Source: Nemertoderma westbladi
Lineage: Eukaryota > Animalia > Xenacoelomorpha
Assembly: GCA_032718475.1 (NCBI GenBank)
Contig: JAUCBJ010000742.1
Location: forward strand, 1 to 64,000
DNA: 64,000 nt
Direction: 5' to 3'
Part shown: piece by piece, positions 1,318 through 29,001 of the stretch
How the letters are laid out: each line of letters opens with the position of its first letter
Position numbering within the stretch: position 1 is the stretch's first letter
Position numbers and translations under genes: made by a program
The notes under the pieces: generated by a model
What the model was told of the DNA's origin: nothing
What the model saw: the letters and a program-made list of their open reading frames with translations, nothing else
Databases searched by the model: none

Positions 1318-2757
1318 ATCGATGAGGACTCGTCTCTCCAACAACACGTTCTTATCCTACCGGGCAGAGCGGGTAGTGAAGGCCCGTTGCTTGGCAACAG
1401 ATGCTCGACGGCTCCTAGACTCTGCACCAACCCCATAAACACCTCCCCCCCGAGACTCCTTACAACGACCAGCCAGACGGGACCAACCACAACCGCTACC
1501 GGCGCTGACGTTGTCACGCCCCCCTCTCCGATTAATCCTCCATCGGCGAGCTCACCCAGCCCCGTTCGCATGATAGAAAACTCCAGCCAGCACGCTTACA
1601 TACCACTCAGAGTAATCACAGAATCGCCTGCCACTTATTCTGAATTACCGTCGTTACAAAATGAAGTTCATAACGTAACCTCCTCCATAACATCTGCAGG
1701 GGCTGGATTTTTAATACAAAATACCCCATCTAATAATGATGTCATAAAAAGAGGATTTGAATTTACATCACCTAGCGTAACTGTAGAGAGTAATGTTGTA
1801 CGTCCATGTGCAACAAACTCGATATATTTTTATAATGGTCTTTCAACGCCGAGTGGGAACTCAACGTATTGTGGCCCTACGCCACCTAGTGGGGACCCAA
1901 CGTATTGTGTGCTTGCGCCACCTAGTGGGAACCCAACCTCCAACCCCGTTGTCCCACCGAACGTTCTATACGCCAACTACCTGGATAGCTACCGACAGTT
2001 GGAGACCAGCACTCGTACCGAGTACCTACTGATGTATCTAAACCGTTTGAACCGACTAGACAGACTGCGAGAGTCCGACACTCAGCTCGATTTGTTTCAA
2101 GTCCTTCTCGGCGGGGGGCATGAGGATTTAGAAGATAACTTAATACGGTTGAGTTCCGTGGTACTTGGTGAGGATTCCGTGGTGGAGAAGGGAGTTGGGT
2201 CTCTCCCTGCTGCAGAGGAACGCGAACCAACACTGATTCACATCGCTGTCGGATTAGGCTCGTTGCGACTCGTTGATTGGCTGTTGCTAGGCTACGCCCC
2301 GGACCGCGACCCCCTAGTCCCGGACTCGCTCGGACGGACGCCGCTCCACTGGGCGGCCTACATCAACCGCGCGGACTTGGCTTCCGCTCTGTGTCGTTGT
2401 CGCTTGGAGACCGCTGTGGCTGCTGACTCTCACGGGGTCACCCCCTTGGATCTCGCCCGCCTGAGGGACCACGCCTCCGTAGTCGCTACAGTCTGCGAGT
2501 TTATTAATCCGCCAGTGGGTCCCATGGAAGCCGTCGTGGGCGCTCGTTCAGGATTGGTTAATCCGCTGTCAGGGCCTGTTGTATCCATGGATGCTGTTGC
2601 TATGGAACGAACCAAAGTATCCGATACTCCCTCCGTTTTGATGGATGAAATCCAACTCGGGGAAATTGTTGAGTCGATAGAGTTAGGCTTACCGTTGCAG
2701 GAGTTAGGCATACCGCTTCAAGAGTTAGGCATACCGTTGCAGGAGCCGACTCCAAAT
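1318..2757 (+). CDS. CAMTA: Large internal exon (480 codons, phase 0/0) of a CAMTA-like gene: S/T/P-rich region, pre-ankyrin helices and ankyrin repeats
   Basis: Acceptor tttattgttttcag|ATC at 1317/1318 is in frame with ORF 1387-2793. Donor AAT|gttagt at 2757/2758 is phase 0 and matches the next exon. The translation TLIHIAVGLG...DPLVPDSLGRTPLHWAAY...AADSHGVTPLDLARLRDHASVV resembles the animal CAMTA ankyrin region as I recall it (TLLHLAAAQG...DPLNVD...TPLMWAC...PDSLGRLPLGIARSRGH). Family call is by eye, not by database search. Confidence 0.8.
1849..1938 (+). repeat. In-frame coding tandem repeat, about 2.5 x 36 bp (PSGNSTYCGPTP / PSGDPTYCVLAP / PSGNPT)
   Basis: AGTGGG(A/G)AC(T/C)CAAC recurs at 36-nt spacing. 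Confidence 0.85.
2680..2745 (+). repeat. In-frame coding tandem repeat, 3 x 21 bp (ELG[L/I]PLQ)
   Basis: GAGTTAGGCTTACCGTTGCAG / GAGTTAGGCATACCGCTTCAA / GAGTTAGGCATACCGTTGCAG / GAG. Confidence 0.9.
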
Positions 2758-2868
2758 GTTAGTCTCATTGCGAAATTATTGTCATTTCAGTAAATTTAAT
2801 TATTTTTCAAAGGAAGGTAAGAAGAACTTTGCTCTACTTTAGTTACAAATAATCTGTCAATAAAACAA

Positions 2869-5800
2869 AAACCTACCAGTATCCCTTTTAGGTTCCATCC
2901 GTCCCCAACTCCAGTAAACCTACCAGTATCCCTTTTAGGTTCCCTCCATCCCCAACTCCAGTAAACCTACCAGTATCCCTTTTAGGTTCCCTCCGTCCCC
3001 AACTCCAGTAAACCTACCAGTATCCCTTTTAGGTTCCCTCCGTCCCCAACTCCAGTAAACCTACCAGTATCCCTTTTAGGTTCCCTCCGTCCCCAACTCC
3101 AGTAAACCTACCAGTATCCCTTTTAGGTTCCCCCCATCCCCAACTCCAGTAAACCTACCAGTATCCCTTTTAGGTTCCCTCCGTCCCCAACTCCAGTAAA
3201 CCTACCAGTATCCCTTTTAGGTTCCCTCCGTCCCCAACTCCAGTAAACCTACCAGTATCCCTTTTAGGTTCCCTCCGTCCCCAACTCCAGTAAACCTACC
3301 AGTATCCCTTTTAGGTTCCCCCCATCCCCAACTCCAGTAAACCTACCAGTATCCCTTTTAGGTTCCCTCCATCCGTCCCCAACTCCAGTAAACCTACCAG
3401 TATCCCTTTTAGGTTCCCTCCATCCCCAACTCCAGTAAACCTACCAGTATCCCTTTTAGGTTCCCTCCATCCCCAACTCCAGTAAACCTACCAGTATCCC
3501 TTTTAGGTTCCCTCCGTCCCCAACTCCAGTAAACCTACCAGTATCCCTTTTAGGTTCCCTCCATCCGTCCCCAACTCCAGTAAACCTACCAGTGTCCCTT
3601 TTAGGTTCCCTCCATCCCCAACTCCAGTAAACCTACCAGTGTCCCTTTTAGGTTCCCTCCATCCCCAACTCCAGTAAACCTACCAGTATCCCTTTTAGGT
3701 TCCCTCCGTCCCCAACTCCAGTAAACCTACCAGTATCCCTTTTAGGTTCCCTCCATCCGTCCCCAACTCCAGTAAACCTACCAGTATCCATTTTAGGTTC
3801 CCTCCATCCCCAACTACAGTAAACCTACCAGTATCCCTTTTAGGTTCCCTCCATCCCCAACTCCAGTAAACCTACCAGTATACCTTTTAGGTTCCCTCCA
3901 TCCGTCCCCAACTCCAGTAAACCTACCAGTATCCCTTTTAGGTTCCCTCCATCCCCAACTCCAGTAAACCTACCAGTATCCCTTTTAGGTTCCCTCCATC
4001 CCCAACTCCAGTAAACCTACCAGTATCCCTTTTAGGTTCCCTCCATCCCCAACTCCAGTAAACCTACCAGTATCCCTTTTAGGTTCCCTCCATCCGTCCC
4101 CAACTCCAGTAAACCTACCAGTATCCCTTTTAGGTTCCCTCCATCCGTCCCCAACTCCAGTAAACCTACCAGTATCCCTTTTAGGTTCCCTCCATCCGTC
4201 CCCAACTCCAGTAAACCTACCAGTATCCCTTTTAGGTTCCCTCCATCCGTCCCCAACTCCAGTAAACCTACCAGTATCCCTTTTAGGTTCCCTCCATCCG
4301 TCCCCAACTCCAGTAAACCTACCAGTATCCCTTTTAGGTTCCCTCCATCCGTCCCCAACTCCAGTAAACCTACCAGTATCCCTTTTAGGTTCCCTCCATC
4401 CGTCCCCAACTCCAGTAAACCTACCAGTATCCCTTTTAGGTTCCCTCCATCCGTCCCCAACTCCAGTAAACCAACCAGTATCCCTTTTAGGTTCCCTCCA
4501 TCCCCAACTACAGTAAACCTACCAGTATCCCTTTTAGGTTCCCTCCATCCGTCCCCAACTCCAGTAAACCTACCAGTATCCCTTTTAGGTTCCCTCCATC
4601 CCCAACTCCAGTAAACCTACCAGTATCACTTTTAGGTTCCCTCCATCCCCAACTCCAGTAAACCTAGCAGTATCCCTTTTAGGTTCCCTCCGTCCGTCCC
4701 CAACTCCATTAAACCAACCAGTATCCCTTTTAGGTTCCCTCCGTCCCCAACTCCAGTAAACCTACCAGTATCCCTTTTAGGTTCCCTCCATCCCCAACTC
4801 CAGTAAACCTACCAGTATCCCTTTTAGGTTCCCTCCATCCGTCCCCAACTCCTGTAAACCTACCAGTATCCCTTTTAGATTCCCTCCATTCCCAACTCCA
4901 GTAAACCTACCAGTATCCCTTTTAGATTCCCTCCATTCCCAACTCCAGTAAACCTACCAGTATCCCTTTTAGGTTCCCTCCATCCGTCCCCAACTCCTGT
5001 AAACCTACCAGTATCCCTTTTAGATTCCCTCCATTCCCAACTCCAGTAAACCTACCAGTATCCCTTTTAGGTTCCCTCCATCCATCCCCAACTCCAGTAA
5101 ACCTACCAGTATCTCTTTTAGGTTCCCTCCATCCGTCCCCAACTCCAGTAAACCTACCAGTATCACTTTTAGGTTTCCTCCATCCCCAACTCCAGTAAAC
5201 CTACCAGTATCACTTTTAGGTTCCCTCCATCCGTCCCCAACTCCAGTAAACCTACCAGTATCCCTTTTAGGTTCCCTCCATCCCCAACTCCAGTAAACCT
5301 ACCAGTATCCCTTTTAGGTTCCCTCCATCCATCCCCAACTCCAGTAAACCTACCAGTATCTCTTTTAGGTTCCCTCCATCCGTCCCCAACTCCAGTAAAC
5401 CTACCAGTATCACTTTTAGGTTTCCTCCATCCCCAACTCCAGTAAACCTACCAGTATCACTTTTAGGTTCCCTCCATCCGTCCCCAACTCCAGTAAACCT
5501 ACCAGTATCACTTTTAGGTTTCCTCCATCCCCAACTCCAGTAAACCTACCAGTATCACTTTTAGGTTCCCTCCGTCCGTCCCCAACTCCAGTAAACCTAC
5601 CAGTATCCCTTTTAGATTCCCTCCATTCCCAACTCCAGTAAACCTACCAGTATCCCTTTTAGGTTCCCTCCATCCATCCCCAACTCCAGTAAACCTACCA
5701 GTATCTCTTTTAGGTTCCCTCCATCCGTCCCCAACTCCAGTAAACCTACCAGTATCACTTTTAGGTTTCCTCCATCCCCAACTCCAGTAAACCTACCAGT

Positions 5801-8800
5801 ATCACTTTTAGGTTCCCTCCATCCGTCCCCAACTCCAGTAAACCTACCAGTATCCCTTTTAGGTTCCCTCCATCCCCAACTCCAGTAAACCTACCAGTAT
5901 CCCTTTTAGATTCCCTCCATTCCCAACTCCAGTAAACCTACCAGTATCCCTTTTAGGTTCCCTCCATCCGTCCCCAACTCCTGTAAACCTACCAGTATCC
6001 CTTTTAGGTTCCCTCCATCCCCAACTCCAGTAAACCTACCAGTATCCCTTTTAGATTCCCTCCATTCCCAACTCCAGTAAACCTACCAGTATCCCTTTTA
6101 GGTTCCCTCCATCCCCAACTCCAGTAAACCTAGCAGTATCCCTTTTAGGTTCCCTCCGTCCGTCCCCAACTCCATTAAACCAACCAGTATCCCTTTTAGG
6201 TTCCCTCCGTCCCCAACTCCAGTAAACCTACCAGTATCCCTTTTAGGTTCCCTCCATCCCCAACTCCAGTAAACCAACCAGTATCCCTTTTAGGTTCCCT
6301 CCGTCCCCAACTCCAGTAAACCTACCAGTATCCCTTTTAGGTTCCCTCCATCCGTCCCCAACTCCAGTAAACCTACCAGTATCCCTTTTAGGTTCCCTCC
6401 ATCCGTCCCCAACTCCAGTAAACCTACCAGTATCCCTTTTAGGTTCCCTCCATCCGTCCCCAACTCCAGTAAACCAACCAGTATCCCTTTTAGGTTCCCT
6501 CCATCCCCAACTACAGTAAACCTACCAGTATCCCTTTTAGGTTCCCTCCATCCGTCCCCAACTCCAGTAAACCTACCAGTATCCCTTTTAGGTTCCCTCC
6601 ATCCCCAACTCCAGTAAACCTACCAGTATCACTTTTAGGTTCCCTCCATCCCCAACTCCAGTAAACCTAGCAGTATCCCTTTTAGGTTCCCTCCGTCCGT
6701 CCCCAACTCCATTAAACCAACCAGTATCCCTTTTAGGTTCCCTCCGTCCCCAACTCCAGTAAACCTACCAGTATCCCTTTTAGGTTCCCTCCATCCCCAA
6801 CTCCAGTAAACCTACCAGTATCCCTTTTAGATTCCCTCCATTCCCAACTCCAGTAAACCTACCAGTATCCCTTTTAGGTTCCCTCCATCCATCCCCAACT
6901 CCAGTAAACCTACCAGTATCTCTTTTAGGTTCCCTCCATCCGTCCCCAACTCCAGTAAACCTACCAGTATCACTTTTAGGTTTCCTCCATCCCCAACTCC
7001 AGTAAACCTACCAGTATCACTTTTAGGTTCCCTCCATCCGTCCCCAACTCCAGTAAACCTACCAGTATCCCTTTTAGGTTCCCTCCATCCCCAACTCCAG
7101 TAAACCTACCAGTATCCCTTTTAGATTCCCTCCATTCCCAACTCCAGTAAACCTACCAGTATCCCTTTTAGGTTCCCTCCGTCCCCAACTCCAGTAAACC
7201 TACCAGTATCCCTTTTAGGTTCCCTCCGTCCCCAACTCCAGTAAACCTACCAGTATCCCTTTTAGGTTCCCTCCATCCGTCCCCAACTCCTGTAAACCTA
7301 CCAGTATCCCTTTTAGGTTCCCTCCATCCCCAACTCCAGTAAACCTACCAGTATCCCTTTTAGATTCCCTCCATTCCCAACTCCAGTAAACCTACCAGTA
7401 TCCCTTTTAGGTTCCCTCCATCCCCAACTCCAGTAAACCTAGCAGTATCCCTTTTAGGTTCCCTCCGTCCGTCCCCAACTCCATTAAACCAACCAGTATC
7501 CCTTTTAGGTTCCCTCCGTCCCCAACTCCAGTAAACCTACCAGTATCCCTTTTAGGTTCCCTCCATCCCCAACTCCAGTAAACCAACCAGTATCCCTTTT
7601 AGGTTCCCTCCGTCCGTCCCCAACTCCATTAAACCTACCAGTATCCCTTTTAGGTTCCCTCCTTCCCCGACTCCAGTAAACCTACCAGTATCCCTTTTAG
7701 GTTCCCTCCGTCCCCAACTCCAGTAAACCTACCAGTATCCCTTTTAGGTTCCCTCCATCCGTCCCCAACTCCAGTAAACCTACCAGTATCCCTTTTAGGT
7801 TCCCTCCATTCCCAACTCCAGTAAACCTACCAGTATCCCTTTTAGGTTCCCTCCGTCCCCAATTCCAGTAAACCTACCAGTATCCCTTTTAGGTTCCCTC
7901 CGTCCCCAACTCCAGTAAACCTACCAGTATCCCTTTTAGATTCCCTCCATTCCCAACTCCAGTAAACCTACCAGTATCCCTTTTAGGTTCCCTCCATCCA
8001 TCCCCAACTCCAGTAAACCTACCAGTATCTCTTTTAGGTTCCCTCCATCCGTCCCCAACTCCAGTAAACCTACCAGTATCTCTTTTAGGTTCCCTCCATC
8101 CATCCCCAACTCCAGTAAACCTACCAGTATCTCTTTTAGGTTCCCTCCATCCGTCCCCAACTCCTGTAAACCTACCAGTATCCCTTTTAGGTTCCCTCCA
8201 TCCCCAACTCCAGTAAACCTACCAGTATCCCTTTTAGATTCCCTCCATTCCCAACTCCAGTAAACCTACCAGTATCCCTTTTAGGTTCCCTCCGTCCCCA
8301 ACTCCAGTAAACCTACCAGTATCCCTTTTAGGTTCCCTCCATCAATCCCCAACTCCAGTAAACCTACCAGTATCTCTTTTAGGTTCCCTCCATCCGTCCC
8401 CAACTCCAGTAAACCAACCAGTATCACTTTTAGGTTTCCTCCATCCCCAACTCCAGTAAACCTACCAGTATCTCTTTTAGGTTCCCTCCATCCATCCCCA
8501 ACTCCAGTAAACCTACCAGTATCTCTTTTAGGTTCCCTCCATCCGTCCCCAACTCCTGTAAACCTACCAGTATCCCTTTTAGGTTCCCTCCATCCCCAAC
8601 TCCAGTAAACCTACCAGTATCCCTTTTAGATTCCCTCCATTCCCAACTCCAGTAAACCTACCAGTATCCCTTTTAGGTTCCCTCCGTCCCCAACTCCAGT
8701 AAACCTACCAGTATCCCTTTTAGGTTCCCTCCATCAATCCCCAACTCCAGTAAACCTACCAGTATCTCTTTTAGGTTCCCTCCATCCGTCCCCAACTCCA

Positions 8801-11800
8801 GTAAACCAACCAGTATCACTTTTAGGTTTCCTCCATCCCCAACTCCAGTAAACCTACCAGTATCACTTTTAGGTTTCCTCCATCCGTCCCCAACTCCAGT
8901 AAACCTACCAGTATCCCTTTTAGGTTCCCTCCGTCCGTCCCCAACTCCAGTAAACCTACCAGTATCCCTTTTAGATTCCCTCCATTCCCAACTCCAGTAA
9001 ACCTACCAGTATCCCTTTTAGGTTCCCTCCATCCGTCCCCAACTCCTGTAAACCTACCAGTATCCCTTTTAGGTTCCCTCCATCCCCAACTCCAGTAAAC
9101 CTACCAGTATCCCTTTTAGGTTCCCTCCATCCCCAACTCCAGTAAACCTACCAGTATCCCTTTTAGATTCCCTCCATTCCCAACTCCAGTAAACCTACCA
9201 GTATCCCTTTTAGATTCCCTCCATTCCCAACTCCAGTAAACCTACCAGTATCCCTTTTAGATTCCCTCCATTCCCAACTCCAGTAAACCTACCAGTATCC
9301 CTTTTAGGTTCCCTCCATCCCCAACTCCAGTAAACCTACCAGTATCCCTTTTAGGTTCCCTCCATCCCCAACTCCAGTAAACCTACCAGTATCCCTTTTA
9401 GGTTCCCTCCATCCCCAACTCCAGTAAACCTACCAGTATCCCTTTTAGGTTCCCTCCATCCCCAACTCCAGTAAACCTACCAGTATCCCTTTTAGGTTCC
9501 CTCCATTCCCAACTCCAGTAAACCTACCAGTATCCCTTTTAGGTTCCCTCCATCCCCAACTCCAGTAAACCTACCAGTATCCCTTTTAGGTTCCCTCCAT
9601 CCCCAACTCCAGTAAACCTACCAGTATCCCTTTTAGGTTCCCTCCATCCCCAACTCCAGTAAACCTACCAGTATCCCTTTTAGGTTCCCTCCATCCCCAA
9701 CTCCAGTAAACCTACCAGTATCCCTTTTAGGTTCCCTCCATCCCCAACTCCAGTAAACCTACCAGTATCCCTTTTAGATTCCCTCCATTCCCAACTCCAG
9801 TAAACCTACCAGTATCCCTTTTAGGTTCCCTCCATCCGTCCCCAACTCCTGTAAACCTACCAGTATCCCTTTTAGGTTCCCTCCATTCCCAACTCCAGTA
9901 AACCTACCAGTATCCCTTTTAGGTTCCCTCCATCCCCAACTCCAGTAAACCTACCAGTATCCCTTTTAGGTTCCCTCCATCCCCAACTCCAGTAAACCTA
10001 CCAGTATCCCTTTTAGGTTCCCTCCATTCCCAACTCCAGTAAACCTACCAGTATCCCTTTTAGGTTCCCTCCATCCCCAACTCCAGTAAACCTACCAGTA
10101 TCCCTTTTAGGTTCCCTCCATCCCCAACTCCAGTAAACCTACCAGTATCCCTTTTAGGTTCCCTCCATCCCCAACTCCAGTAAACCTACCAGTATCCCTT
10201 TTAGGTTCCCTCCATCCCCAACTCCAGTAAACCTACCAGTATCCCTTTTAGGTTCCCTCCATCCCCAACTCCAGTAAACCTACCAGTATCCCTTTTAGGT
10301 TCCCTCCATTCCCAACTCCAGTAAACCTACCAGTATCCCTTTTAGGTTCCCTCCATCCCCAACTCCAGTAAACCTACCAGTATCCCTTTTAGATTCCCTC
10401 CATTCCCAACTCCAGTAAACCTACCAGTATCCCTTTTAGGTTCCCTCCATCCCCAACTCCAGTAAACCTACCAGTATCCCTTTTAGGTTCCCTCCATCCC
10501 CAACTCCAGTAAACCTAGCAGTATCCCTTTTAGGTTCCCTCCGTCCGTCCCCAACTCCATTAAACCAACCAGTATCCATTTTAGGTTCCCTCCGTCCCCA
10601 ACTCCAGTAAACCTACCAGTATCCCTTTTAGGTTTCCTCCATCCCCAACTCCAGTAAACCTACCAGTATCCCTTTTAGATTCCCTCCATTCCCAACTCCA
10701 GTAAACCTACCAGTATCCCTTTTAGGTTCCCTCCATCCGTCCCCAACTCCTGTAAACCTACCAGTATCCCTTTTAGGTTCCCTCCATCCCCAACTCCAGT
10801 AAACCTACCAGTATCCCTTTTAGGTTCCCTCCATCCCCAACTCCAGTAAACCTACCAGTATCCCTTTTAGATTCCCTCCATTCCCAACTCCAGTAAACCT
10901 ACCAGTATCCCTTTTAGATTCCCTCCATTCCCAACTCCAGTAAACCTACCAGTATCCCTTTTAGATTCCCTCCATTCCCAACTCCAGTAAACCTACCAGT
11001 ATCCCTTTTAGGTTCCCTCCATCCCCAACTCCAGTAAACCTACCAGTATCCCTTTTAGGTTCCCTCCATCCCCAACTCCAGTAAACCTACCAGTATCCCT
11101 TTTAGGTTCCCTCCATCCCCAACTCCAGTAAACCTACCAGTATCCCTTTTAGGTTCCCTCCATCCCCAACTCCAGTAAACCTACCAGTATCCCTTTTAGT
11201 TTCCCTCCATTCCCAACTCCAGTAAACCTACCAGTATCCCTTTTAGGTTCCCTCCATCCCCAACTCCAGTAAACCTACCAGTATCCCTTTTAGGTTCCCT
11301 CCATCCCCAACTCCAGTAAACCTACCAGTATCCCTTTTAGGTTCCCTCCATCCCCAACTCCAGTAAACCTACCAGTATCCCTTTTAGGTTCCCTCCATCC
11401 CCAACTCCAGTAAACCTACCAGTATCCCTTTTAGGTTCCCTCCATCCCCAACTCCAGTAAACCTACCAGTATCCCTTTTAGGTTCCCTCCATTCCCAACT
11501 CCAGTAAACCTACCAGTATCCCTTTTAGGTTCCCTCCATCCCCAACTCCAGTAAACCTACCAGTATCCCTTTTAGATTCCCTCCATTCCCAACTCCAGTA
11601 AACCTACCAGTATCCCTTTTAGGTTCCCTCCATCCCCAACTCCAGTAAACCTACCAGTATCCCTTTTAGGTTCCCTCCATCCCCAACTCCAGTAAACCTA
11701 GCAGTATCCCTTTTAGGTTCCCTCCGTCCGTCCCCAACTCCATTAAACCAACCAGTATCCCTTTTAGGTTCCCTCCGTCCCCAACTCCAGTAAACCTACC

Positions 11801-12713
11801 AGTATCCCTTTTAGGTTCCCTCCATCCCCAACTCCAGTAAACCTACCAGTATCCCTTTTAGATTCCCTCCATTCCCAACTCCAGTAAACCTACCAGTATC
11901 CCTTTTAGGTTCCCTCCATCCCCAACTCCAGTAAACCTAGCAGTATCCCTTTTAGGTTCCCTCCGTCCGTCCCCAACTCCATTAAACCAACCAGTATCCC
12001 TTTTAGGTTCCCTCCGTCCCCAACTCCAGTAAACCTACCAGTATCCCTTTTAGGTTCCCTCCGTCCCCAACTCCAGTAAACCTACCAGTATCCCTTTTAG
12101 GTTCCCTCCATCCATCCCCAACTCCAGTAAACCTACCAGTATCTCTTTTAGGTTCCCTCCATCCGTCCCCAACTCCAGTAAACCAACCAGTATCACTTTT
12201 AGGTTTCCTCCATCCCCAACTCCAGTAAACCTACCAGTATCCCTTTTGGGTTCCCTCCATCCGTCCCCAACTCCAGTAAACCAACCAGTATCCCTTTTAG
12301 ATTCCCTCCATCCCCAACTCCAGTAAACCTACCAGTATCCCTTTTAGGTTTCCTCCGTCCCCAACTCCAGTAAACCAACCAGTATCACTTTTAGGTTTCC
12401 TCCATCCCCAACTCCAGTAAACCTACCAGTATCCCTTTTGGGTTCCCTCCATCCGTCCCCAACTCCAGTAAACCAACCAGTATCCCTTTTAGATTCCCTC
12501 CATCCCCAACTCCAGTAAACCTACCAGTATCCCTTTTAGGTTTCCTCCATCCCCAACTCCAGTAAACCTACCAGTATCCCTTTTAGGTTCCCTCCATCCC
12601 CAACTCCAGTAAACCTACCAGTGTCCCTTTTAGGTTCCCTCCATCCCCAACTCCAGTAAACCTACCAGTATCACTTTTAGGTTTCCTCCATCCCCAACTC
12701 CAGTAAACCTACC
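2869..12713 (+). repeat. Minisatellite array A, left part; 47-bp unit CCAGTAAACCTACCAGTATCCCTTTTAGGTTCCCTCCATCCCCAACT and a 51-bp variant (+CGTC or CATC); about 200 copies
   Basis: Uninterrupted head-to-tail repeats read directly. The unit equals the 3' end of the intron plus the first ~24 nt of exon 28704-28908. Confidence 0.98.
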
Positions 12714-15438
12714 GGCCCAAACTCACAAAAAGTGGCCAAAAACGTTTCCCACACGATTCGACTTAATTTTAGAATGAAATTTTTTTTGGAACCTAGTAAA
12801 GTTATATATATTTTTGAAGATAATTTTATGGTCCAACAGATGCACAAAAAATCATACTGCCACTCCGACTTTGAAAGATTTTACAGACCTTTTAGTACTA
12901 AAAAATGCAGGTTTTTCAATTGTCCAAAAAAGTTCATTGCATTGTGGGGGATGTATTTTGACATCTACTGGGTGTATTTCAACAAGTTATAGCTCATTTT
13001 AAAGCTAAATAATAGAGGAATGCAATGGAATAACTCCCAAATTGTTTTATTGGTATTATATTTAAATAAAACAATAGATAATATACCCCTATTTTGACAA
13101 TTACTTGTCCCAAACGGTAACACCTGAATTCACCAATAGGTTTTTATTTGGATTCTATAAACTAAATTCTTATTTGAACGGAAAATCTTCAAGAAGTGGA
13201 ATGTTCCAGATTTTACGAAAAAATACTAAACACAACCAGAGATATGGCTGGTTTTATACGTGCGAGTCGATTATGTCAATTAGGATTGTCCCATGTGTAA
13301 CACCAAGTGCACTGCTTTACCATGCTCTAGAATCAGTTCAAACAAACTTGATATTAAGATTCAAATATCAGAAGATAGCCAAGTTCTTGGTCTTTTGCGT
13401 GAGTAATCATTTGTGGCAACAATTGACTATGGAATAGACTTTAGTTGCTTTTACATTTATCAGCATGAGCTTTGTCCCACCTGTAACAAAAGCCTGTAAC
13501 ACAAAAAATCGTTACAGGGCGGGACGTCCCACATGTAACATGTAAATCGACTAATTTTGGGCTACAGAGTAAGACATGTCTCACCTGTAACACTTTAGTA
13601 GTGCAGACTTCATAATATTGATAAGACTGTAGGTCATGCACACATAACAGCAGTATTAACTGTGAATTGGTACTTACCTACCTACAGTAGTACCGGTAAC
13701 AGTATCAGTGCTGCCTCTTTATTGCGTTTGATTCGAAGTTATTGGATCTACAGATCTGCGCAGTGCATAGAGTTTACTATTGACTACTAAACAAACTAAT
13801 CCTAACCAGAACCAGTTATAAGACACTGATACAGACACTATGTGACTACGGTATAGAATAGAGACCACATTTCATTACTTATTAGACATCAGCTTGCCGT
13901 TCCGGTATCAAGATACTGATAGTCATAATAGCCACACAAAATAGCCATAATAATAGTGATCTGTCTTATATGGATAGATCTGTCCATATTCATATACATG
14001 GTGATCTGTCTTAGATCTATCTTCTGCGATTGGGAGAGGGAGATTGGGAGCTCCGTGAGGGGAGAAGTTAGAGGTGGGAGGGAAAAAAATAGAGGTGCAA
14101 GGGGAGCAGTTGGAGGTGTGAGGGGAAAAGGTAGAGGTGCAAGGGGAGCAGTTGGAGGTGCGAGGGGAAAAGGTAGAGGTGCAAGAGGAGCAGTCGGAAG
14201 TGTGATGGGAAAAGGTAGAGGTGCAAGTGGAGCAGTTGGAGGTGCGAGAGGAGTAGTTAGTGCGAGAGCAGTAGGTAGTGGTGCGAGAGGAGAATGGGAT
14301 GATCCGTGGAGGGTGTGGGAGACAGGGTGAAAAGTACAGGAGGATCTGTGGAGGGTGTGGGAAACAGGGTGAAAAGTACAGGAGGATCTGTGGAGGGTGT
14401 GGGAGACGGAGTGGGAAGTACAGGATGATTTGTGGAGGGTGTGGGAGACGGAGTGGGAGCTATGGGAGGATCTGTGGAGGGTGTGGGAGACGGAATGGGA
14501 AGTACAGGAGGATCTGTGGAGGGTGTGGGAGACAAGGTGAGAAGTACAGGAGGATCTGTGGGGGGTGTGGGAGACAGGGTGAGAAGTACAGGAGGATCTG
14601 AGGAGGGTGGGGAAGTTGGAGTGGAAGGTACAGGTGGATCTGTGGAGGGTGGGGATGAAAGTGATAATGAACAATTTACAGGTTTTGAAGGAGTGGGGGG
14701 TATGGGAAGATACGTGGCGGCTATACAAGATAACGTTTGGAATACAGGAGAATCTATGGAGGGTGTAGAAGATGGAGTGGGGAGTACAGGAGGTTCTGTG
14801 GAGGGTGGAGATGAAACTGATGAACAATTTATAGGTTTTGACTAACTGCTCAGCCATAGTGATATACAGTTATAAACTCAGTAATAAACTCGTCATACTT
14901 TTGTGAATTTTCATATAAATCGTCACTAAAGTACCTAAAAGTGGTTAAAATGTTTTAATAAACTCTTTATGTTTATTTGATAAACTATAATATTTTATAA
15001 TTTTTCCAGAAATGGGGACCATAAAGATTTCTTATGATTGATTATATTTTCAAATAAGCTTTATTGGGAGCTGTTACTGGGATCAGGAATGGCTGAATAG
15101 CTCCCACTCAGAGACGAAATCTAGCTTAATTTAACATTTCAATGTAATTACAACTGGTGTTACATGGTGGGACAAATTGTTACAGGCATCGGAAATCACC
15201 ATTCAAGGGCTCTGATTGGCTGATTTCGGGCGTTACATTGTGGGACAAGTGTTACAGGAATGGACATCTGTTTTTCTCAATTATTTGTTACCATGAGGTC
15301 GGGGCTATTGGGAAATTACCACCATTGAATTCAGCGCATCAAGAGCTTTCTGATGATATATAATATTACATACTTTGGGAAACTTTTTTTTTTAGAAAAA
15401 AAATATTTTTTTTTGGCCACTTTTTGTGATTTTAAGCC
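12714..15438. mobile_element. 2.7-kb TIR DNA transposon, apparently non-autonomous, superfamily unassigned, inserted in array A with 4-bp TSD TACC
   Basis: Left end GGCCCAAACTCACAAAAAGTGGCCAAAAA; reverse complement of right end GGCTTAAAATCACAAAAAGTGGCCAAAAA (26/29 identical). Flanks are aaacc-TACC|element|TACC-agt versus the empty unit aaacctaccagt. No transposase motif recognised. Confidence 0.9.
14080..14830. repeat. Two adjacent G-rich 42-bp minisatellites inside the transposon
   Basis: Units approximating AGAGGTGCAAGGGGAGCAGTTGGAGGTGCGAGGGGAAAAGGT (about 14090-14250) and GAAGTACAGGAGGATCTGTGGAGGGTGTGGGAGACAGGGTGA (about 14300-14650, degenerate to 14830). The overlapping ORFs show 14-aa periodicity. 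Confidence 0.85.
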
Positions 15439-18400: not shown

Positions 18401-21400
18401 CCCAACTCCAGTAAACCAACCAGTATCCCTTTTAGGTTCCCTCCATCCGTCCCCAACTCCAGTAAACCTACCAGTATCCCTTTTAGGTTTCCTCCATCCC
18501 CAACTCCAGTAAACCTACCAGTATCCCTTTTAGGTTCCCTCCATCCCCAACTCCAGTAAACCTACCAGTATCCCTTTTAGGTTCCCTCCATCCGTCCCCA
18601 ACTCCAGTAAACCTACCAGTATCCCTTTTAGGTTTCCTTCATCCCCAACTCCAGTAAACCTACCAGTATCCCTTTTAGGTTCCCTCCTTCCCCAACTCCA
18701 GTAAACCTACCAGTATCCCTTTTAGGTTCCCTCCATCCCCAACTCCAGTAAACCTACCAGTATCCCTTTTAGGTTCCCTCCATCCGTCCCCAACTCCAGT
18801 AGTATCCCTTTTAGGTTTCCTCCATCCCCAACTCCAGTAAACCTACCAGTATCCCTTTTAGGTTCCCTCCTTCCTTCCCCAACTCCAGTAAACCTACCAG
18901 TATCCCTTTTAGGTTCCCTCCATCCGTCCCCAACTCCAGTAAACCTACCAGTATCCCTTTTAGGTTCCCTCCGTCCCCAACTCCAGTAAACCTACCAGTA
19001 TCCCTTTTAGGTTCCCTCCATCCGTCCCAAACTCCAGTAAACCTACCAGTATCCCTTTTAGGTTCCCTCCATCCGTCCCCAACTCCAGTAAACCTACCAG
19101 TATCCCTTTTAGGTTCCCCCCATCCCCAACTCAGTAAACCTACCAGTATCCATTTTAGGTTCCCTCCATCCCCAACTCCAGTAAACCTACCAGTATCCCT
19201 TTTAGGTTCCTTCCATCCCCAACTCCAGTAAACCTACCAGTATCCCTTTTAGGTTCCCTCCATCCGTCCCCAACTCCAGTAAACCTACCAGTATCCCTTT
19301 TAGGTTCCCTCCATCCGTCCCCAACTCCAGTAAACCAACCAGTATCCCTTTTAGGTTCCCTCCATCCCCAACTCCAGTAAACCTACCAGTATCCCTTTTA
19401 GGTTCCCTCCTTCCCCGACTCCAGTAAACCTACCAGTATCCCTTTTAGGTTCCCTCCATCCGTCCCCAACTCCAGTAAACCTACCAGTATCCCTTTTAGG
19501 TTTCCTCTATCCCCAACTCCAGTAAACCTACCAGTATCCATTTTAGGTTCCCTCCATCCCCAACTCCAGTAAACCTACCAGTATCCATTTTAGGTTCCCT
19601 CCATCCCCAACTCCAGTAAACCTACCAGTATCCCTTTTAGGTTCCCTCCATCCCCAACTCCAGTAAACCTACCAGTATACTTTTTAGGTTCCCTCCATCC
19701 CCAACTCCAGTAAACCTACCAGTATCCCTTTTAGATTCCCTCCATTCCCAACTCCAGTAAACCTACCAGTATCCCTTTTAGGTTCCCTCCATCCCCAACT
19801 CCAGTAAACCTAGCAGTATCCCTTTTAGGTTCCCTCCGTCCGTCCCCAACTCCATTAAACCAACCAGTATCCCTTTTAGGTTCCCTCCGTCCCCAACTCC
19901 AGTAAACCTACCAGTATCCCTTTTAGGTTCCCTCCATCCATCCCCAACTCCAGTAAACCTACCAGTATCCCTTTTAGATTCCCTCCATTCCCAACTCCAG
20001 TAAACCTACCAGTATCCCTTTTAGGTTCCCTCCATCCCCAACTCCAGTAAACCTAGCAGTATCCCTTTTAGGTTCCCTCCGTCCGTCCCCAACTCCATTA
20101 AACCTACCAGTATCCCTTTTAGATTCCCTCCATTCCCAACTCCAGTAAACCTACCAGTATCCCTTTTAGGTTCCCTCCATCCATCCCCAACTCCAGTAAA
20201 CCTACCAGTATCCCTTTTAGGTTCCCTCCATCCCCAACTCCAGTAAACCTACCAGTATCCCTTTTAGGTTCCCTCCATCCCCAACTCCAGTAAACCTACC
20301 AGTATCCCTTTTATGTTCCCTCCATCCGTCCCCAACTCCAGTAAACCCACCAGTATCACTTTTAGGTTTCCTCCATCCCCAACTCCAGTAAACCTACCAG
20401 TATCCCTTTTGGGTTCCCTCCATCCGTCCCCAACTCCAGTAAACCAACCAGTATCCCTTTTAGATTCCCTCCATTCCCAACTCCAGTAAACCTACCAGTA
20501 TCCCTTTTAGATTCCCTCCATTCCCAACTCCAGTAAACCTACCAGTATCCCTTTTAGGTTCCCTCCATCCGTCCCCAACTCCTGTAAACCTACCAGTATC
20601 CCTTTTAGATTCCCTCCATTCCCAACTCCAGTAAACCTACCAGTATCCCTTTTAGGTTCCCTCCATCCGTCCCCAACTCCTGTAAACCTACCAGTATCCC
20701 TTTTAGGTTCCCTCCATCCGTCCCCAACTCCAGTAAACCTACCAGTATCCCTTTTAGGTTCCCCCCATCCCCAACTCAGTAAACCTACCAGTATCCATTT
20801 TAGGTTCCCCCCATCCCCAACTCAGTAAACCTACCAGTATCCATTTTAGGTTCCCTCCGTCCCCAACTCCAGTAAACCTACCAGTATCCCTTTTAGATTC
20901 CCTCCATTCCCAACTCCAGTAAACCTACCAGTATCCCTTTTAGGTTCCCTCCATCCGTCCCCAACTCCTGTAAACCTACCAGTATCCCTTTTAGGTTCCC
21001 TCCATCCGTCCCCAACTCCAGTAAACCTACCAGTATCCCTTTTAGGTTCCCCCCATCCCCAACTCAGTAAACCTACCAGTATCCATTTTAGGTTCCCTCC
21101 ATCCCCAACTCCAGTAAACCTACCAGTATCCCTTTTAGGTTCCTTCCATCCCCAACTCCAGTAAACCTACCAGTATCCCTTTTAGGTTCCCTCCATCCGT
21201 CCCCAACTCCAGTAAACCTACCAGTATCCCTTTTAGGTTCCCTCCTTCCCCAACTCCAGTAAACCTACCAGTATCCCTTTTAGGTTCCCCCCATCCCCAA
21301 CTCAGTAAACCTACCAGTATCCATTTTAGGTTCCCTCCATCCCCAACTCCAGTAAACCTACCAGTATCCCTTTTAGGTTCCTTCCATCCCCAACTCCAGT

Positions 21401-24400
21401 AAACCTACCAGTATCCCTTTTAGGTTCCCTCCATCCGTCCCCAACTCCAGTAAACCTACCAGTATCCCTTTTAGGTTCCCTCCATCCGTCCCCAACTCCA
21501 GTAAACCAACCAGTATCCCTTTTAGGTTCCCTCCTTCCCCAACTCCAGTAAACCAACCAGTATCCATTTTAGGTTCCCTCCATCCCCAACTCCAGTAAAC
21601 CTACCAGTATCCCTTTTAGGTTCCTTCCATCCCCAACTCCAGTAAACCTACCAGTATCCCTTTTAGGTTCCCTCCATCCGTCCCCAACTCCAGTAAACCT
21701 ACCAGTATCCCTTTTAGGTTCCCTCCATCCGTCCCCAACTCCAGTAAACCAACCAGTATCCCTTTTAGGTTCCCTCCTTCCCCAACTCCAGTAAACCTAC
21801 CAGTATCCCTTTTAGGTTCCCTCCATCCGTCCCCAACTCCAGTAAACCTACCAGTATCCCTTTTAGGTTCCCTCCATCCGTCCCCAACTCCAGTAAACCA
21901 ACCAGTATCCCTTTTAGGTTCCCTCCTTCCCCAACTCCAGTAAACCTACCAGTATCCCTTTTAGGTTCCTTCCATCCCCAACTCCAGTAAACCTACCAGT
22001 ATCCCTTTTAGGTTCCCTCCATCCGTCCCCAACTCCAGTAAACCTACCAGTATCCCTTTTAGGTTCCCTCCTTCCCCAACTCCAGTAAACCTACCAGTAT
22101 CCCTTTTAGATTCCCTCCATCCCCAACTCCAGTAAACCTACCAGTATCCCTTTTAGGTTCCCTCCATCCCCAACTCCAGTAAACCTACCAGTCCCTTTTA
22201 GGTTCCCTCCGTCCCCAACTCCAGTAAACCTACCAGTATCACTTTTAGGTTCCCTCCGTCCCCAACTCCAGTAAACCTACCAGTGTCCCTTTTAGGTTCC
22301 CTCCATCCGTCCCCAACTCCAGTAAACCTACCAGTATCCCTTTTAGATTCCCTCCATCCCCAACTCCAGTAAACCTACCAGTATCCCTTTTAGGTTCCCT
22401 CCATCCCCAACTCCAGTAAACCTACCAGTATCCCTTTTAGGTTCCCTCCATCCCCAACTCCAGTAAACCTACCAGTATCCCTTTTAGGTTCCCTCCGTCC
22501 CCAAGTCCAGTAAACCTACCAGTATCCCTTTTAGGTTCCCTCCTTCCCCAACTCCAGTAAACCTACCAGTATCCCTTTTAGATTCCCTCCATCCCCAACT
22601 CCAGTAAACCTACCAGTATCCCTTTTAGATTCCTTCCATCCCCAACTCCAGTAAACCTACCAGTATCCCTTTTAGGTTCCCTCCGTCCCCAACTCCAGTA
22701 AACCTACCAGTATCCCTTTTAGGTTCCCTCCTTCCCCAACTCCAGTAAACCTACCAGTATCCCTTTTAGATTCCCTCCATCCCCAACTCCAGTAAACCTA
22801 CCAGTATCCCTTTTAGGTTCCCTCCATCCCCAACTCCAGTAAACCTACCAGTATCCCTTTTAGGTTCCCTCCGTCCCCAACTCCAGTAAACCTACCAGTA
22901 TCACTTTTAGGTTCCCTCCGTCCCCAACTCCAGTAAACCTACCAGTGTCCCTTTTAGGTTCCCTCCATCCGTCCCCAACTCCAGTAAACCTACCAGTATC
23001 CCTTTTAGATTCCCTCCATCCCCAACTCCAGTAAACCTACCAGTATCCCTTTTAGGTTCCCTCCATCCCCAACTCCAGTAAACCTACCAGTATCCCTTTT
23101 AGGTTCCCTCCATCCCCAACTCCAGTAAACCTACCAGTGTCCCTTTTAGGTTCCCTCCATCCCCAACTCCAGTAAACCTACCAGTATCCCTTTTAGGTTC
23201 CCTCCATCCCCAACTCCAGTAAACCTACCAGTATCCCTTTTAGGTTCCCTCCGTCCCCAACTCCAGTAAACCTACCAGTATCCCTTTTAGGTTCCCTCCA
23301 TCCCCAACTCCAGTAAACCTACCAGTATCCCTTTTAGGTTCCCTCCATCCCCAACTCCAGTAAACCTACCAGTATCCCTTTTAGGTTCCCTCCGTCCCCA
23401 ACTCCAGTAAACCTACCAGTATCCCTTTTAGGTTCCCTCCGTCCCCAACTCCAGTAAACCTACCAGTGTCCCTTTTAGGTTCCCTCCATCCGTCCCCAAC
23501 TCCAGTAAACCTACCAGTATCCCTTTTAGATTCCCTCCATCCCCAACTCCAGTAAACCTACCAGTATCCCTTTTAGGTTCCCTCCGTCCCCAACTCCAGT
23601 AAACCTACCAGTATCCCTTTTAGGTTCCCTCCTTCCCCAACTCCAGTAAACCTACCAGTATCCCTTTTAGGTTCCCTCCATCCCCAACTCCAGTAAACCA
23701 ACCAGTATCCCTTTTAGGTTCCCTCCATCCGTCCCCAACTCCAGTAAACCTACCAGTATCCCTTTTAGGTTCCCTCCATCCCCAACTCCAGTAAACCAAC
23801 CAGTATCCCTTTTAGGTTCCCTCCATCCGTCCCCAACTCCAGTAAACCTACCAGTATCCCTTTTAGATTCCCTCCATCCCCAACTCCAGTAAACCTACCA
23901 GTATCCCTTTTAGGTTCCCTCCATCCGTCCCCAACTCCAGTAAACCTACCAGTATCCCTTTTAGGTTCCCTCCGTCCCCAACTCCAGTAAACCTACCAGT
24001 ATCCCTTTTAGGTTCCCTCCTTCCCCAACTCCAGTAAACCTACCAGTATCCCTTTTAGGTTCCCTCCATCCCCAACTCCAGTAAACCAACCAGTATCCCT
24101 TTTAGGTTCCCTCCATCCGTCCCCAACTCCAGTAAACCTACCAGTATCCCTTTTAGATTCCCTCCATCCCCAACTCCAGTAAACCTACCAGTATCCCTTT
24201 TAGGTTCCCTCCGTCCCCAACTCCAGTAAACCTACCAGTATCCCTTTTAGGTTCCCTCCTTCCCCAACTCCAGTAAACCTACCAGTATCCCTTTTAGGTT
24301 CCCTCCATCCCCAACTCCAGTAAACCAACCAGTATCCCTTTTAGGTTCCCTCCATCCGTCCCCAACTCCAGTAAACCTACCAGTATCCCTTTTAGGTTCC

Positions 24401-27400
24401 CTCCATCCCCAACTCCAGTAAACCAACCAGTATCCCTTTTAGGTTCCCTCCATCCGTCCCCAACTCCAGTAAACCTACCAGTATCCCTTTTAGATTCCCT
24501 CCATTCCCAACTCCAGTAAACCTACCAGTATCCCTTTTAGATTCCCTCCATCCCCAACTCCAGTAAACCTACCAGTATCCCTTTTAGGTTCCCTCCATCC
24601 CCAACTCCAGTAAACCTACCAGTATCCCTTTTAGGTTCCCTCCATCCGTCCCCAACTCCAGTAAACCTACCAGTATCCCTTTTAGATTCCCTCCATTCCC
24701 AACTCCAGTAAACCTACCAGTATCCCTTTTAGATTCCCTCCATCCCCAACTCCAGTAAACCTACCAGTATCCCTTTTAGGTTCCCTCCATCCGTCCCCAA
24801 CTCCAGTAAACCTACCAGTATCCCTTTTAGATTCCCTCCATCCCCAACTCCAGTAAACCTACCAGTATCCCTTTTAGATTCCCTCCATCCCCAACTCCAG
24901 TAAACCTACCAGTATCCCTTTTAGGTTCCCTCCATCCGTCCCCAACTCCAGTAAACCTACCAGTATCCCTTTTAGGTTCCCTCCATCCCCAACTCCAGTA
25001 AACCTACCAGTATCCCTTTTAGGTTCCCTCCATCCGTCCCCAACTCCAGTAAACCTACCAGTATCCCTTTTAGATTCCCTCCATTCCCAACTCCAGTAAA
25101 CCTACCAGTATCCCTTTTAGATTCCCTCCATCCCCAACTCCAGTAAACCTACCAGTATCCCTTTTAGGTTCCCTCCATCCCCAACTCCAGTAAACCTACC
25201 AGTATCCCTTTTAGGTTCCCTCCGTCCCCAACTCCAGTAAACCTACCAGTATCACTTTTAGGTTCCCTCCGTCCCCAACTCCAGTAAACCTACCAGTGTC
25301 CCTTTTAGGTTCCCTCCATCCGTCCCCAACTCCAGTAAACCTACCAGTATCCCTTTTAGGTTCCCTCCATCCCCAACTCCAGTAAACCTACCAGTATCCC
25401 TTTTAGGTTCCCTCCGTCCCCAACTCCAGTAAACCAACCAGTATCCCTTTTAGGTTCCCTCCATCCGTCCCCAACTCCAGTAAACCTACCAGTATCCCTT
25501 TTAGGTTCCCTCCATCCCCAACTCCAGTAAACCTACCAGTATCCCTTTTAGGTTCCCTCCGTCCCCAACTCCAGTAAACCTACCAGTATCCCTTTTAGGT
25601 TCCCTCCGTCCCCAACTCCAGTAAACCAACCAGTATCCCTTTTAGGTTCCCTCCATCCGTCCCCAACTCCAGTAAACCTACCAGTATCCCTTTTAGGTTC
25701 CCTCCATCCCCAACTCCAGTAAACCTACCAGTATCCCTTTTAGGTTCCCTCCGTCCCCAACTCCAGTAAACCAACCAGTATCCCTTTTAGGTTCCCTCCA
25801 TTCCCAACTCCAGTAAACCTACCAGTATCCCTTTTAGGTTCCCTCCGTCCCCAACTCCAGTAAACCAACCAGTATCCCTTTTAGGTTCCCTCCATCCGTC
25901 CCCAACTCCAGTAAACCTACCAGTATCCCTTTTAGATTCCCTCCATCCCCAACTCCAGTAAACCTACCAGTATCCCTTTTAGGTTCCCTCCGTCCCCAAC
26001 TCCAGTAAACCTACCAGTATCCCTTTTAGGTTCCCTCCTTCCCCAACTCCAGTAAACCTACCAGTATCCCTTTTAGGTTCCCTCCATCCCCAACTCCAGT
26101 AAACCAACCAGTATCCCTTTTAGGTTCCCTCCATCCGTCCCCAACTCCAGTAAACCTACCAGTATCCCTTTTAGGTTCCCTCCATCCCCAACTCCAGTAA
26201 ACCAACCAGTATCCCTTTTAGGTTCCCTCCATCCGTCCCCAACTCCAGTAAACCTACCAGTATCCCTTTTAGATTCCCTCCATTCCCAACTCCAGTAAAC
26301 CTACCATTATCCCTTTTAGATTCCCTCCATCCCCAACTCCAGTAAACCTACCAGTATCCCTTTTAGGTTCCCTCCATCCCCAACTCCAGTAAACCTACCA
26401 GTATCCCTTTTAGGTTCCCTCCGTCCCCAACTCCAGTAAACCTACCAGTATCACTTTTAGGTTCCCTCCGTCCCCAACTCCAGTAAACCTACCAGTGTCC
26501 CTTTTAGGTTCCCTCCATCCGTCCCCAACTCCTGTAAACCTACCAGTATCCCTTTTAGGTTCCCTCCATCCGTCCCCAACTCCAGTAAACCTACCAGTAT
26601 CCCTTTTAGATTCCCTCCATCCCCAACTCCAGTAAACCTACCAGTGTCCCTTTTAGGTTCCCTCCATCCGTCCCCAACTCCAGTAAACCTACCAGTATCC
26701 CTTTTAGATTCCCTCCATCCCCAACTCCAGTAAACCTACCAGTATCCCTTTTAGGTTCCCTCCATCCCCAACTCCAGTAAACCTACCAGTATCCCTTTTA
26801 GGTTCCCTCCATCCCCAACTCCAGTAAACCTACCAGTGTCCCTTTTAGGTTCCCTCCATCCCCAACTCCAGTAAACCTACCAGTATCCCTTTTAGGTTCC
26901 CTCCATCCCCAACTCCAGTAAACCTACCAGTATCCCTTTTAGGTTCCCTCCGTCCCCAACTCCAGTAAACCTACCAGTATCCCTTTTAGGTTCCCTCCAT
27001 CCCCAACTCCAGTAAACCTACCAGTATCCCTTTTAGGTTCCCTCCATCCCCAACTCCAGTAAACCTACCAGTATCCCTTTTAGGTTCCCTCCGTCCCCAA
27101 CTCCAGTAAACCTACCAGTGTCCCTTTTAGGTTCCCTCCATCCGTCCCCAACTCCAGTAAACCTACCAGTATCCCTTTTAGATTCCCTCCATTCCCAACT
27201 CCAGTAAACCAACCAGTATCCCTTTTAGGTTCCCTCCATCCCCAACTCCAGTAAACCTACCAGTATCCCTTTTAGGTTCCCTCCATCCCCAACTCCAGTA
27301 AACCTACCAGTATCCCTTTTAGATTCCCTCCATCCCCAACTCCAGTAAACCTACCAGTATCACTTTTAGGTTCCCTCCATCCATCCCCAACTCCAGTAAA

Positions 27401-28745
27401 CCTACCAGTATCCCTTTTAGATTCCCTCCATCCATCCCCAACTCCAGTAAACCTACCAGTATCCCTTTTAGGTTCCCTCCATCCCCAACTCCAGTAAACC
27501 TACCAGTATCCCTTTTAGGTTCCCTCCATCCCCAACTCCAGTAAACCTACCAGTATCCCTTTTAGGTTCCCTCCATCCCCAACTCCAGTAAACCTACCAG
27601 TATCCCTTTTAGGTTCCCTCCATCCCCAACTCCAGTAAACCTACCAGTATCCCTTTTAGGTTCCCTCCATCCCCAACTCCAGTAAACCTACCAGTATCCC
27701 TTTTAGATTCCCTCCATCCCCAACTCCAGTAAACCTACCAGTATCCCTTTTAGGTTCCCTCCATCCCCAACTCCAGTAAACCTACCAGTATCCCTTTTAG
27801 GTTCCCTCCATCCCCAACTCCAGTAAACCTACCAGTATCCCTTTTAGGTTCCCTCCATCCCCAACTCCAGTAAACCTACCAGTATCCCTTTTAGGTTCCC
27901 TCCATCCCCAACTCCAGTAAACCTACCAGTATCACTTTTAGGTTCCCTCCATCCCCAACTCCAGTAAACCTACCAGTGTCCCTTTTAGGTTCCCTCCATC
28001 CCCAACTCCAGTAAACCTACCAGTATCACTTTTAGGTTCCCTCCATCCCCAACTCCAGTAAACCTACCAGTGTCCCTTTTAGGTTCCCTCCATCCCCAAC
28101 TCCAGTAAACCTACCAGTATCCCTTTTAGGTTCCCTCCATCCCCAACTCCAGTAAACCTACCAGTGTCCCTTTTAGGTTCCCTCCATCCCCAACTCCAGT
28201 AAACCTACCAGTATCCCTTTTAGGTTCCCTCCATCCCCAACTCCAGTAAACCTACCAGTGTCCCTTTTAGGTTCCCTCCATCCCCAACTCCAGTAAACCT
28301 ACCAGTATCCCTTTTAGGTTCCCTCCGTCCCCAACTCCAGTAAACCTACCAGTATCCCTTTTAGGTTCCCTCCATCCGTCCCCAACTCCAGTAAACCTAC
28401 CAGTATCCCTTTTAGGTTCCCTCCATCCCCAACTCCAGTAAACCTACCAGTATCCCTTTTAGGTTCCCTCCATCCCCAACTCCAGTAAACCCACCAGTAT
28501 CCCTTTTAGGTTCCCTCCATCCATCCCCAACTCCAGTAAACCTACCAGTATCCCTTTTAGGTTCCCTCCATCCCCAACTCCAGTAAACCTACCAGTATCC
28601 CTTTTAGGTTCCCTCCGTCCCCAACTCCAGTAAACCTACCAGTATCCCTTTTAGGTTCCCTCCATCACCAACTCCAGTATAAACCTACCAGTATCCCTTT
28701 TAGGTTCCCTCCATCCCCAACTCCACTAAACCTCCCACTATCTCC
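15439..28745 (+). repeat. Minisatellite array A, right part; same 47/51-bp unit, about 275 copies; the last copy is the likely functional acceptor and exon start
   Basis: Resumes in register right after the transposon (taccagtatccc) and grades into coding sequence (ctccactaaacctcccactatctcc) at about 28721-28745. Confidence 0.98.
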
Positions 28746-28908: not shown

Positions 28909-29001
28909 GTTAGATATTACAAGTTATTGTTTCAATAATTAACAATTCTTGGTATTAATCAACCTGTGTTCTATATTAATCCGCGCATTATTCTTCCATA
29001 G

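Follow-up and report, generated by a model that had tools for sequence, protein, structure and literature searches.

The window analyzed here, a stretch of 64,000 nucleotides (nt) from Nemertoderma westbladi (GenBank assembly GCA_032718475.1, contig JAUCBJ010000742.1, forward strand), holds part of a eukaryotic gene on the plus strand in which one intron is 25,946 nt long and consists mostly of a tandem array, here called array A, whose unit spans the boundary between that intron and the next exon. We consider it quite likely that array A is a mirage minisatellite, that it likely began by a slip between two imperfect 17-nt repeats, and that its last copy is likely the only one spliced. This class of repeats is already known; array A is a further member, unusual in its size, in its visible candidate seed, and in having a second array in the same gene. 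An earlier note, made from the letters alone, had claimed that an intron of about 134 nt was inflated to 25.9 kb, with the microhomology that seeded the array still visible at its edges.

Tandem Repeats Finder delimited two arrays, one of period 47 at 2869-28742 (array A) and one of period 32 that starts at 31571 and reaches the end of the window (array B). Of eight public sequencing runs, none of them recorded as RNA, the contigs of five, X1 to X5, were aligned to the window; the other three, X6 to X8, were from other organisms or had a word share of 0.00. X1 and X2 are DNA runs from two studies, X3 and X5 were taken as RNA from their exon-exon joints, and X4 was taken as RNA only tentatively. 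The features on which the argument turns are as follows.

1318..2757, + strand: upstream coding exon of 480 codons with ankyrin repeats (open frame; Pfam Ank_2, E = 1.4e-8)
2758..28703, + strand: expanded intron, 25,946 nt, GT..AG (sequence; an X3 contig departs from the genome after 2757 into unit sequence)
2758..2868, + strand: unique 5' part of the intron with the donor, 111 nt (present in X1 and X2; 2774-2835 uncovered in X3)
2869..2885, + strand: left microhomology arm, on the intron side, at the array start
2869..12713, + strand: left block of array A, 204 units
2890..2891, + strand: first acceptor AG, which would give a 134-nt intron; not the acceptor seen in RNA
12714..15438: non-autonomous DNA-transposon-like insert, 2,725 nt, flanked by a 4-nt target duplication and bounded by 29-nt terminal inverted repeats that are 90% complementary
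15439..28742, + strand: right block of array A, 277 units
28702..28703, + strand: last acceptor AG, the sole open in-frame join and likely the one used (frame analysis; contig ends)
28704..28908, + strand: downstream exon, 205 nt, beginning with the exon half of the array A unit (X3 contig from 28719, depth 196; joint 28908/29002)
28728..28744, + strand: right microhomology arm, on the exon side, 14/17 identical to 2869-2885

Array A repeats an intron-exon junction

Each unit of array A joins the last 23 nt of the intron to the first 24 nt of the exon, and the contig ends confirm that the unit spans the boundary. Counted as positions in the acceptor register, there are 481 units, with TTTTAG intact in 476. 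The earlier note had treated the units as 47 bp throughout; this length holds for 331 of the 480 intervals, and 136 are 51 nt. Its coordinates were otherwise confirmed, as the distance from the donor at 2758 to the first array AG is 134 nt, the neighboring intron is 93 nt, and the present intron is indeed about 25.9 kb long. The intron is made up of 111 nt of unique sequence, approximately 23.1 kb of array, and the 2,725-nt insert, which had been overlooked. Because the insert interrupts array A, some 10% of the intron's length is nonarray sequence. Its inverted repeats begin with GGC, its target duplication lies at 12710-12713 and 15439-15442, and its internal 21- and 42-nt tandem repeats (14057-14655) account for long low-complexity frames on both strands; in the three frames given to Pfam, no transposase domain was detected.

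Copies within the array are very similar, differing from the consensus by a mean of 0.84 substitutions (1.8%), and identical runs of 10 to 11 units recur at separate places. We found 36 unit types to the left of the insert and 55 to the right, of which 18 are common to both sides, and several types with at least three copies are restricted to one side. These recurring runs and side-restricted types fit local block duplication. The two boundary copies stand apart. Position 6 of the first unit differs from that of every other copy, and a C at position 23 is confined to the last unit; 452 of the 481 units read CAGTA there. Array A has thus undergone concerted evolution from which its boundary copies are excluded, as indicated by the low divergence, the repeated blocks, and the unique first and last units.

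The edges of the array are as assembled in both DNA runs, whose contigs pass from the exon into the first unit (with the same first-unit start) and, at the other edge, out of the last unit into the exon that follows. The upstream contig differs from the window at 3 positions in X1 and at 8 in X2. For the length instability between haplotypes that marks mirage minisatellites, the pertinent observation is a unit depth in both runs hundreds of times the unique depth, although contig depth is not a copy number. The long upstream exon carries small coding tandem repeats at 1852-1937 (36 nt × 2.4) and 2680-2745 (21 nt × 3.1), and several of the differences between runs fall in the former.

A near match spans the inferred breakpoint

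When array A is collapsed to a single unit, the 17-mers at its two edges match at 14 of 17 positions, with an exact core of 6 nt, at a lag of exactly 47 nt, the unit length. This bears out the earlier observation that the intronic start of the unit nearly matches exon sequence 47 nt on. Moreover, the consensus unit tracks the exon up to the 6-nt core and the intron beyond it.

How unusual such a match is depends on the question asked. Tested at any lag, it was only mildly unusual and borderline: 13 and 9 of 1000 shuffles reached 14 matches, as did 10 of 91 real 120-nt windows. The relevant test is whether the breakpoint of a duplication would fall in a match of this kind, and for this we used 118,032 control breakpoints with lags of 40 to 55 nt in the nonarray sequence of the window. 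An exact run of at least 6 nt occurred at 483 of them, a 17-nt window with at least 14 matches occurred at 131, and both occurred together at 0.07%. At a fixed breakpoint, therefore, the microhomology is clearly beyond chance.

Array A also shows, once collapsed, a short direct repeat one unit apart at its flanks together with an incomplete terminal unit, as in the minisatellites of Haber and Louis and of Taylor and Breden; models of minisatellite birth, in the available part of the source, call for flanking direct repeats of 5 to 10 bp and an incomplete terminal unit (PMC3389668). This pattern does not prove the direction of cause. The singular C of the last unit and the prevalence of CAGTA elsewhere indicate that the copies have been homogenized, and the exon arm could therefore be a decayed array copy. 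The proposal that slippage or unequal exchange seeded the array accordingly fares well in that the array was built from the gene's own junction with its breakpoint in microhomology, and less well in that the exon 17-mer may derive from the array. The ancestral single-copy intron of 134 nt is a hypothesis, as protein and metagenome searches did not find the locus in a relative, with 0 of 306 candidate stretches confirmed in a metagenome scan for the ankyrin region.

Splicing across array A points to the last acceptor

Between the donor and 28703 there are 1,644 AG dinucleotides, and only one of them, the last, gives an open in-frame join, so the earlier claim that the use of upstream AGs meets a stop or a frameshift was confirmed. 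Upstream AGs do not all change the frame, however: 157 of the 479 TTTTAG sites (the last included) are in frame, and the upstream ones among them run into a stop, which for most of them is at codon 9, 39, or 56. The broader claim, that missplicing should be nonproductive, holds for acceptor switching but was overstated. The array carries 468 donor-like GTAAAC sites, and of 2,750 acceptor-donor pairs no more than 300 nt apart, 455 would make in-frame, stop-free cassettes, mostly of 69 or 120 nt. No cassette exons made from array A units were present in the aligned contigs.

The ends of two X3 contigs bear on which acceptor is used. The left contig (1317-2760, depth 174) ends in 11 loose letters that correspond to unit positions 4 to 14; the right contig (depth 196) starts at 28719 (position 16 of the last unit) and lacks the two introns that follow, of 93 and 2,338 nt. 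The junction letters fit the last unit, and the first unit is excluded because it differs from them at position 6. Position 15 is a third codon position, and none of the upstream units has its first difference there; an X1 DNA contig also starts at 28719. The contig breaks in X1 and X3 suggest a probable synonymous allele difference at 28718 in the last unit. A one-base allele bubble within a direct join of 2757 to 28704 would be the simplest reading of the X3 contig ends. Since the X3 contigs depart from the genome at 2757, are incompatible with the first unit, and pick up again in the last, use of the last acceptor is likely, and the data strongly suggest that the mature mRNA uses the last AG of array A. 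Unit-only contigs in X3 reach a depth of 7, compared with 174 to 196 for the mRNA, which sets a rough ceiling of a few percent on transcripts that keep a unit. Regular splicing around array A thus appears undisturbed in this one RNA-like run, in which the join itself is not bridged by one contig.

Several points weigh against this interpretation. No single contig spans from 2757 to the exon-specific C at 28726, and the 14 junction letters seen are also common to 163 of the 475 upstream units. The RNA evidence for the junction comes from a single run, X3, whose label in the tool is "DNA?". Furthermore, in X4 and X5, which derive from one sample, unit contigs are deeper than mRNA contigs (49 versus 3.9 and 141 versus 20, respectively); coverage in these runs is patchy, and the 7- to 12-fold excess of the unit contigs (at 2869-2922 and 28678) is unexplained. 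Rare variants are also lost from contigs, which makes some low-level use of other sites possible, and steady-state RNA does not reveal whether fidelity stems from accurate choice or from the decay of errors. X5 has no array B units, though contigs of array A units are deep there. RNA structure was considered as a cause of last-copy choice and rejected, as folding gives the same small hairpin over the AG whether the context is that of the first, an internal, or the last copy.

Proposed origin and alternative explanations

We propose that array A arose by steps of differing certainty. A slip or unequal exchange within the 6-nt core would have duplicated 23 nt of intron together with 24 nt of exon. 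Repeated duplications of single units and of multiunit blocks, whose pattern is visible in the array and whose mechanism we infer, would then have produced 481 units, and the transposon-like element would have landed in the array later. The mature mRNA, as the contigs strongly suggest, joins 2757 to 28704. The last AG may win by exon definition, because it is the acceptor nearest to the next donor (205 nt away) and because the first AG keeps its native upstream context yet is not the acceptor seen; transcripts joined elsewhere would meet stop codons in the units and undergo nonsense-mediated decay. Array A would on this account be tolerated intronic DNA and not a functional switch.

The most direct challenge to the seeding step is that the microhomology is a result of the array, that is, a decayed or partly converted terminal copy in a low-complexity exon start. 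At two CCA-x-TA motifs spaced 12 nt apart, the consensus carries a G in place of the exon's C, as if the copies had been homogenized away from the exon, and the exon start is rich in Pro, Ser, and Thr and is probably weakly constrained. However, the match ends after 17 nt, before the acceptor part of the unit; the pattern is the one predicted by the published birth models, as far as the available text goes (PMC3389668); and the left edge of array B has a similar partial match. We regard this reading as possible but unlikely. A different objection concerns the last acceptor, which might be reached by removing the intron piecewise, through recursive or nested splicing at the AG|GT or GTAAAC of successive units, ending at the last copy. 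In every unit the AG is directly followed by GT, the GTAAAC sites are plentiful, the end product would be the same mRNA, and X4 and X5 are rich in contigs that contain units. Yet the donor regenerated in this way would read GTTCCC, which does not resemble the real donors of the gene (GTTAGT, GTTAGA, GTACAC, and GTGAGA), intermediate joins are absent from the aligned contigs, and array B, whose unit does not combine an acceptor with a donor, is also spliced correctly. Piecewise removal therefore seems improbable.

Two further explanations would deny that the array grew in place as part of a working gene. The unit could be that of a dispersed satellite family whose insertion at this locus provided an acceptor by chance, as might be read from a summed unit depth of 15,000 to 22,000 in X1 and X2 against 14 to 27 for unique sequence. 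But the summed depth counts overlapping contigs repeatedly, and single consensus contigs in X2 have depths of about 3,900 to 4,200 against 14 to 19, a roughly 200- to 300-fold excess that fits one array; as the commonest 31-mers occur in 274 to 326 copies in array A, there is hardly scope for a large dispersed family. In addition, the unit runs seamlessly into the open frame of the exon, the loose ends listed at the unit lead only to more unit, no 14-mers of the unit occur outside array A in the window, and metagenome contigs gave 0 matches to a 25-nt unit pattern. We consider this origin very improbable. Finally, long near-identical arrays are hard to assemble, and array A could be an assembly artifact, or the gene could have been broken by it. 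Against this, X1 and X2, DNA runs of separate studies, have contigs that cross both array edges as in the window and show high unit depth, the variation among units is structured, the insert has a target duplication, and the gene is spliced on both sides of array A in X3. An artifact or a broken gene is thus very improbable, although the exact length of array A may still be off.

A second array in the same gene

Array B lies two exons downstream of array A in the same CAMTA-like gene and mirrors its arrangement on the donor side.

28909..29001, + strand: intron, 93 nt (RNA joint, GT..AG, in X3)
29002..29146, + strand: exon, 145 nt (X3 and X5 contigs)
29147..31484, + strand: intron, 2,338 nt, GT..AG, with a long interspersed nuclear element (LINE) reverse-transcriptase fragment (RVT_1) and other repeats (RNA joint in X3 and X5)
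31485..31590, + strand: exon, 106 nt, whose 3' end plus donor is the array B unit (contigs of X3 and X5 depart from the genome at 31590, where the first donor lies)
31571..64000, + strand: array B, a 32/31-nt donor-side mirage with 1,021 units in the window, 1,019 of them with an intact GT; it runs off the window

The unit of array B consists of the last 20 nt of the exon at 31485-31590 and the first 12 nt of the next intron. Because contigs of X3 and X5 leave the genome at 31590, the first donor of the array is the one used, and none of the 1,018 downstream donors would give an in-frame open extension of the exon.

The two arrays share the 9-mer AACCTACCA, found at the seed of array A (2869-2877) and in the first exon copy of array B (31572-31580). 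The motif is part of every array A unit, and the transposon-like insert landed in it. At least 9 letters in common with the array A unit, on either strand, were seen for 36 of 1,902 control 32-mers, and the sharing is a post hoc observation. It is a long shot that AACCTACCA, as a target of breakage or recombination, drives the formation of giant mirage arrays in this lineage. If it did, a short motif would turn neighboring splice sites into arrays of tens of kilobases, from which the spliceosome takes the exon-nearest of hundreds to more than 1,000 identical sites.

The host gene and its surroundings

The four-exon path is open over 632 codons, and its Pfam matches are to Ank and Ank_2. The best cluster for the gene in the atlas was "CMTA1 protein (Fragment)" (score 0.96, 169 of 256 features), a weak match in that its recognition value of 2056 is under the tool's reliability mark of 2300. 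From its sequence the gene may thus be CAMTA-like, although weakly so. Its ankyrin repeats agree with a CAMTA transcription factor, and the CG-1, TIG, and IQ domains that define such factors would fall in exons beyond the window. Protein searches for relatives of the host gene returned generic ankyrin proteins only.

Other repeats are present around the exons. A dispersed high-copy repeat occupies 1100-1285, just 5' of the acceptor at 1318. The LINE reverse-transcriptase fragment lies at 30050-30660, and its named matches, at 45 to 55% identity, are from Clytia, Mnemiopsis, and Branchiostoma; its family is very abundant, as its summed DNA contig depth is about 1 to 2 million compared with 19 to 27 for unique sequence. 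A second very abundant repeat, at approximately 30862-31063, is also deep in the RNA-like runs X3 and X5.

Relation to known systems and significance

The arrangement that the earlier note treated without reference to a class has been described in amphioxus, where mirage minisatellites are reported in Adh3, troponin C, the globins BflGb6 and BflGb9, and PGBD5 (PMC3087553, PMC3902484); this comparison and those that follow draw on the available portions of the cited papers. As in array A, the amphioxus repeats lie over intron-exon boundaries, most copies carry splice signals, the mRNA is normal (PMC3087553, PMC3902484), and concerted evolution spares the boundary copies. BflGb6 is acceptor sided like array A, and BflGb9 is donor sided like array B. 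The difference is one of scale, as the globin clusters have 3 to 6 units, whereas the present gene has 481 in array A and at least 1,019 in array B, within one gene and over 58 kb.

Human genes offer smaller counterparts. The variant c.844_845ins68 of CBS duplicates an acceptor intron/exon junction, the downstream copy is strongly favored, and the mRNA is normal, but there are two 68-bp copies instead of the hundreds in array A (PMC2630376). The 37-bp variable-number tandem repeat in intron 7 of F7 likewise covers a splice site, has functional-looking spares, and uses only the exon-adjacent site, as array B does; it is on the donor side, has five to nine copies, and uses the first, so that array A is its acceptor-side mirror (PMC1557585). 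Array A further resembles the minisatellite births described by Haber and Louis in 1998 and by Taylor and Breden in 2000 in its flanking repeat of the 5- to 10-bp kind and its incomplete terminal unit, and it departs from them in that the duplicated span carries a splice acceptor (PMC3389668). The giant introns of Drosophila kl-3 and kl-5 also owe their size to tandem repeats, but these are megabases of simple satellite, unlike the tens of kilobases derived here from the gene's own junction (PMC6508621). Repeats at exon-intron boundaries can also make new introns (PMC2812944). We found no published mirage with hundreds of copies in the literature searched, whose coverage is incomplete; the published cases found, as far as their available text goes, have 2 to 9 copies.

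One expressed gene carries 475 spare acceptors in one intron and more than 1,000 spare donors in another; in both introns, splicing apparently uses the copy nearest the exon. This makes array A a natural extreme test of 3' splice site choice, since scanning from the native branch region for the first AG predicts use of the first copy, while exon definition predicts use of the last. Array A also tests how much of splicing fidelity is owed to nonsense-mediated decay. Furthermore, the origin of mirages is called unclear in the available part of PMC3087553, and the candidate seed visible in array A, as a preserved breakpoint, would give this class of repeats a concrete origin. Finally, such arrays would be a route by which a gene with short introns gains tens of kilobases without transposons, and they are a trap for gene annotation.

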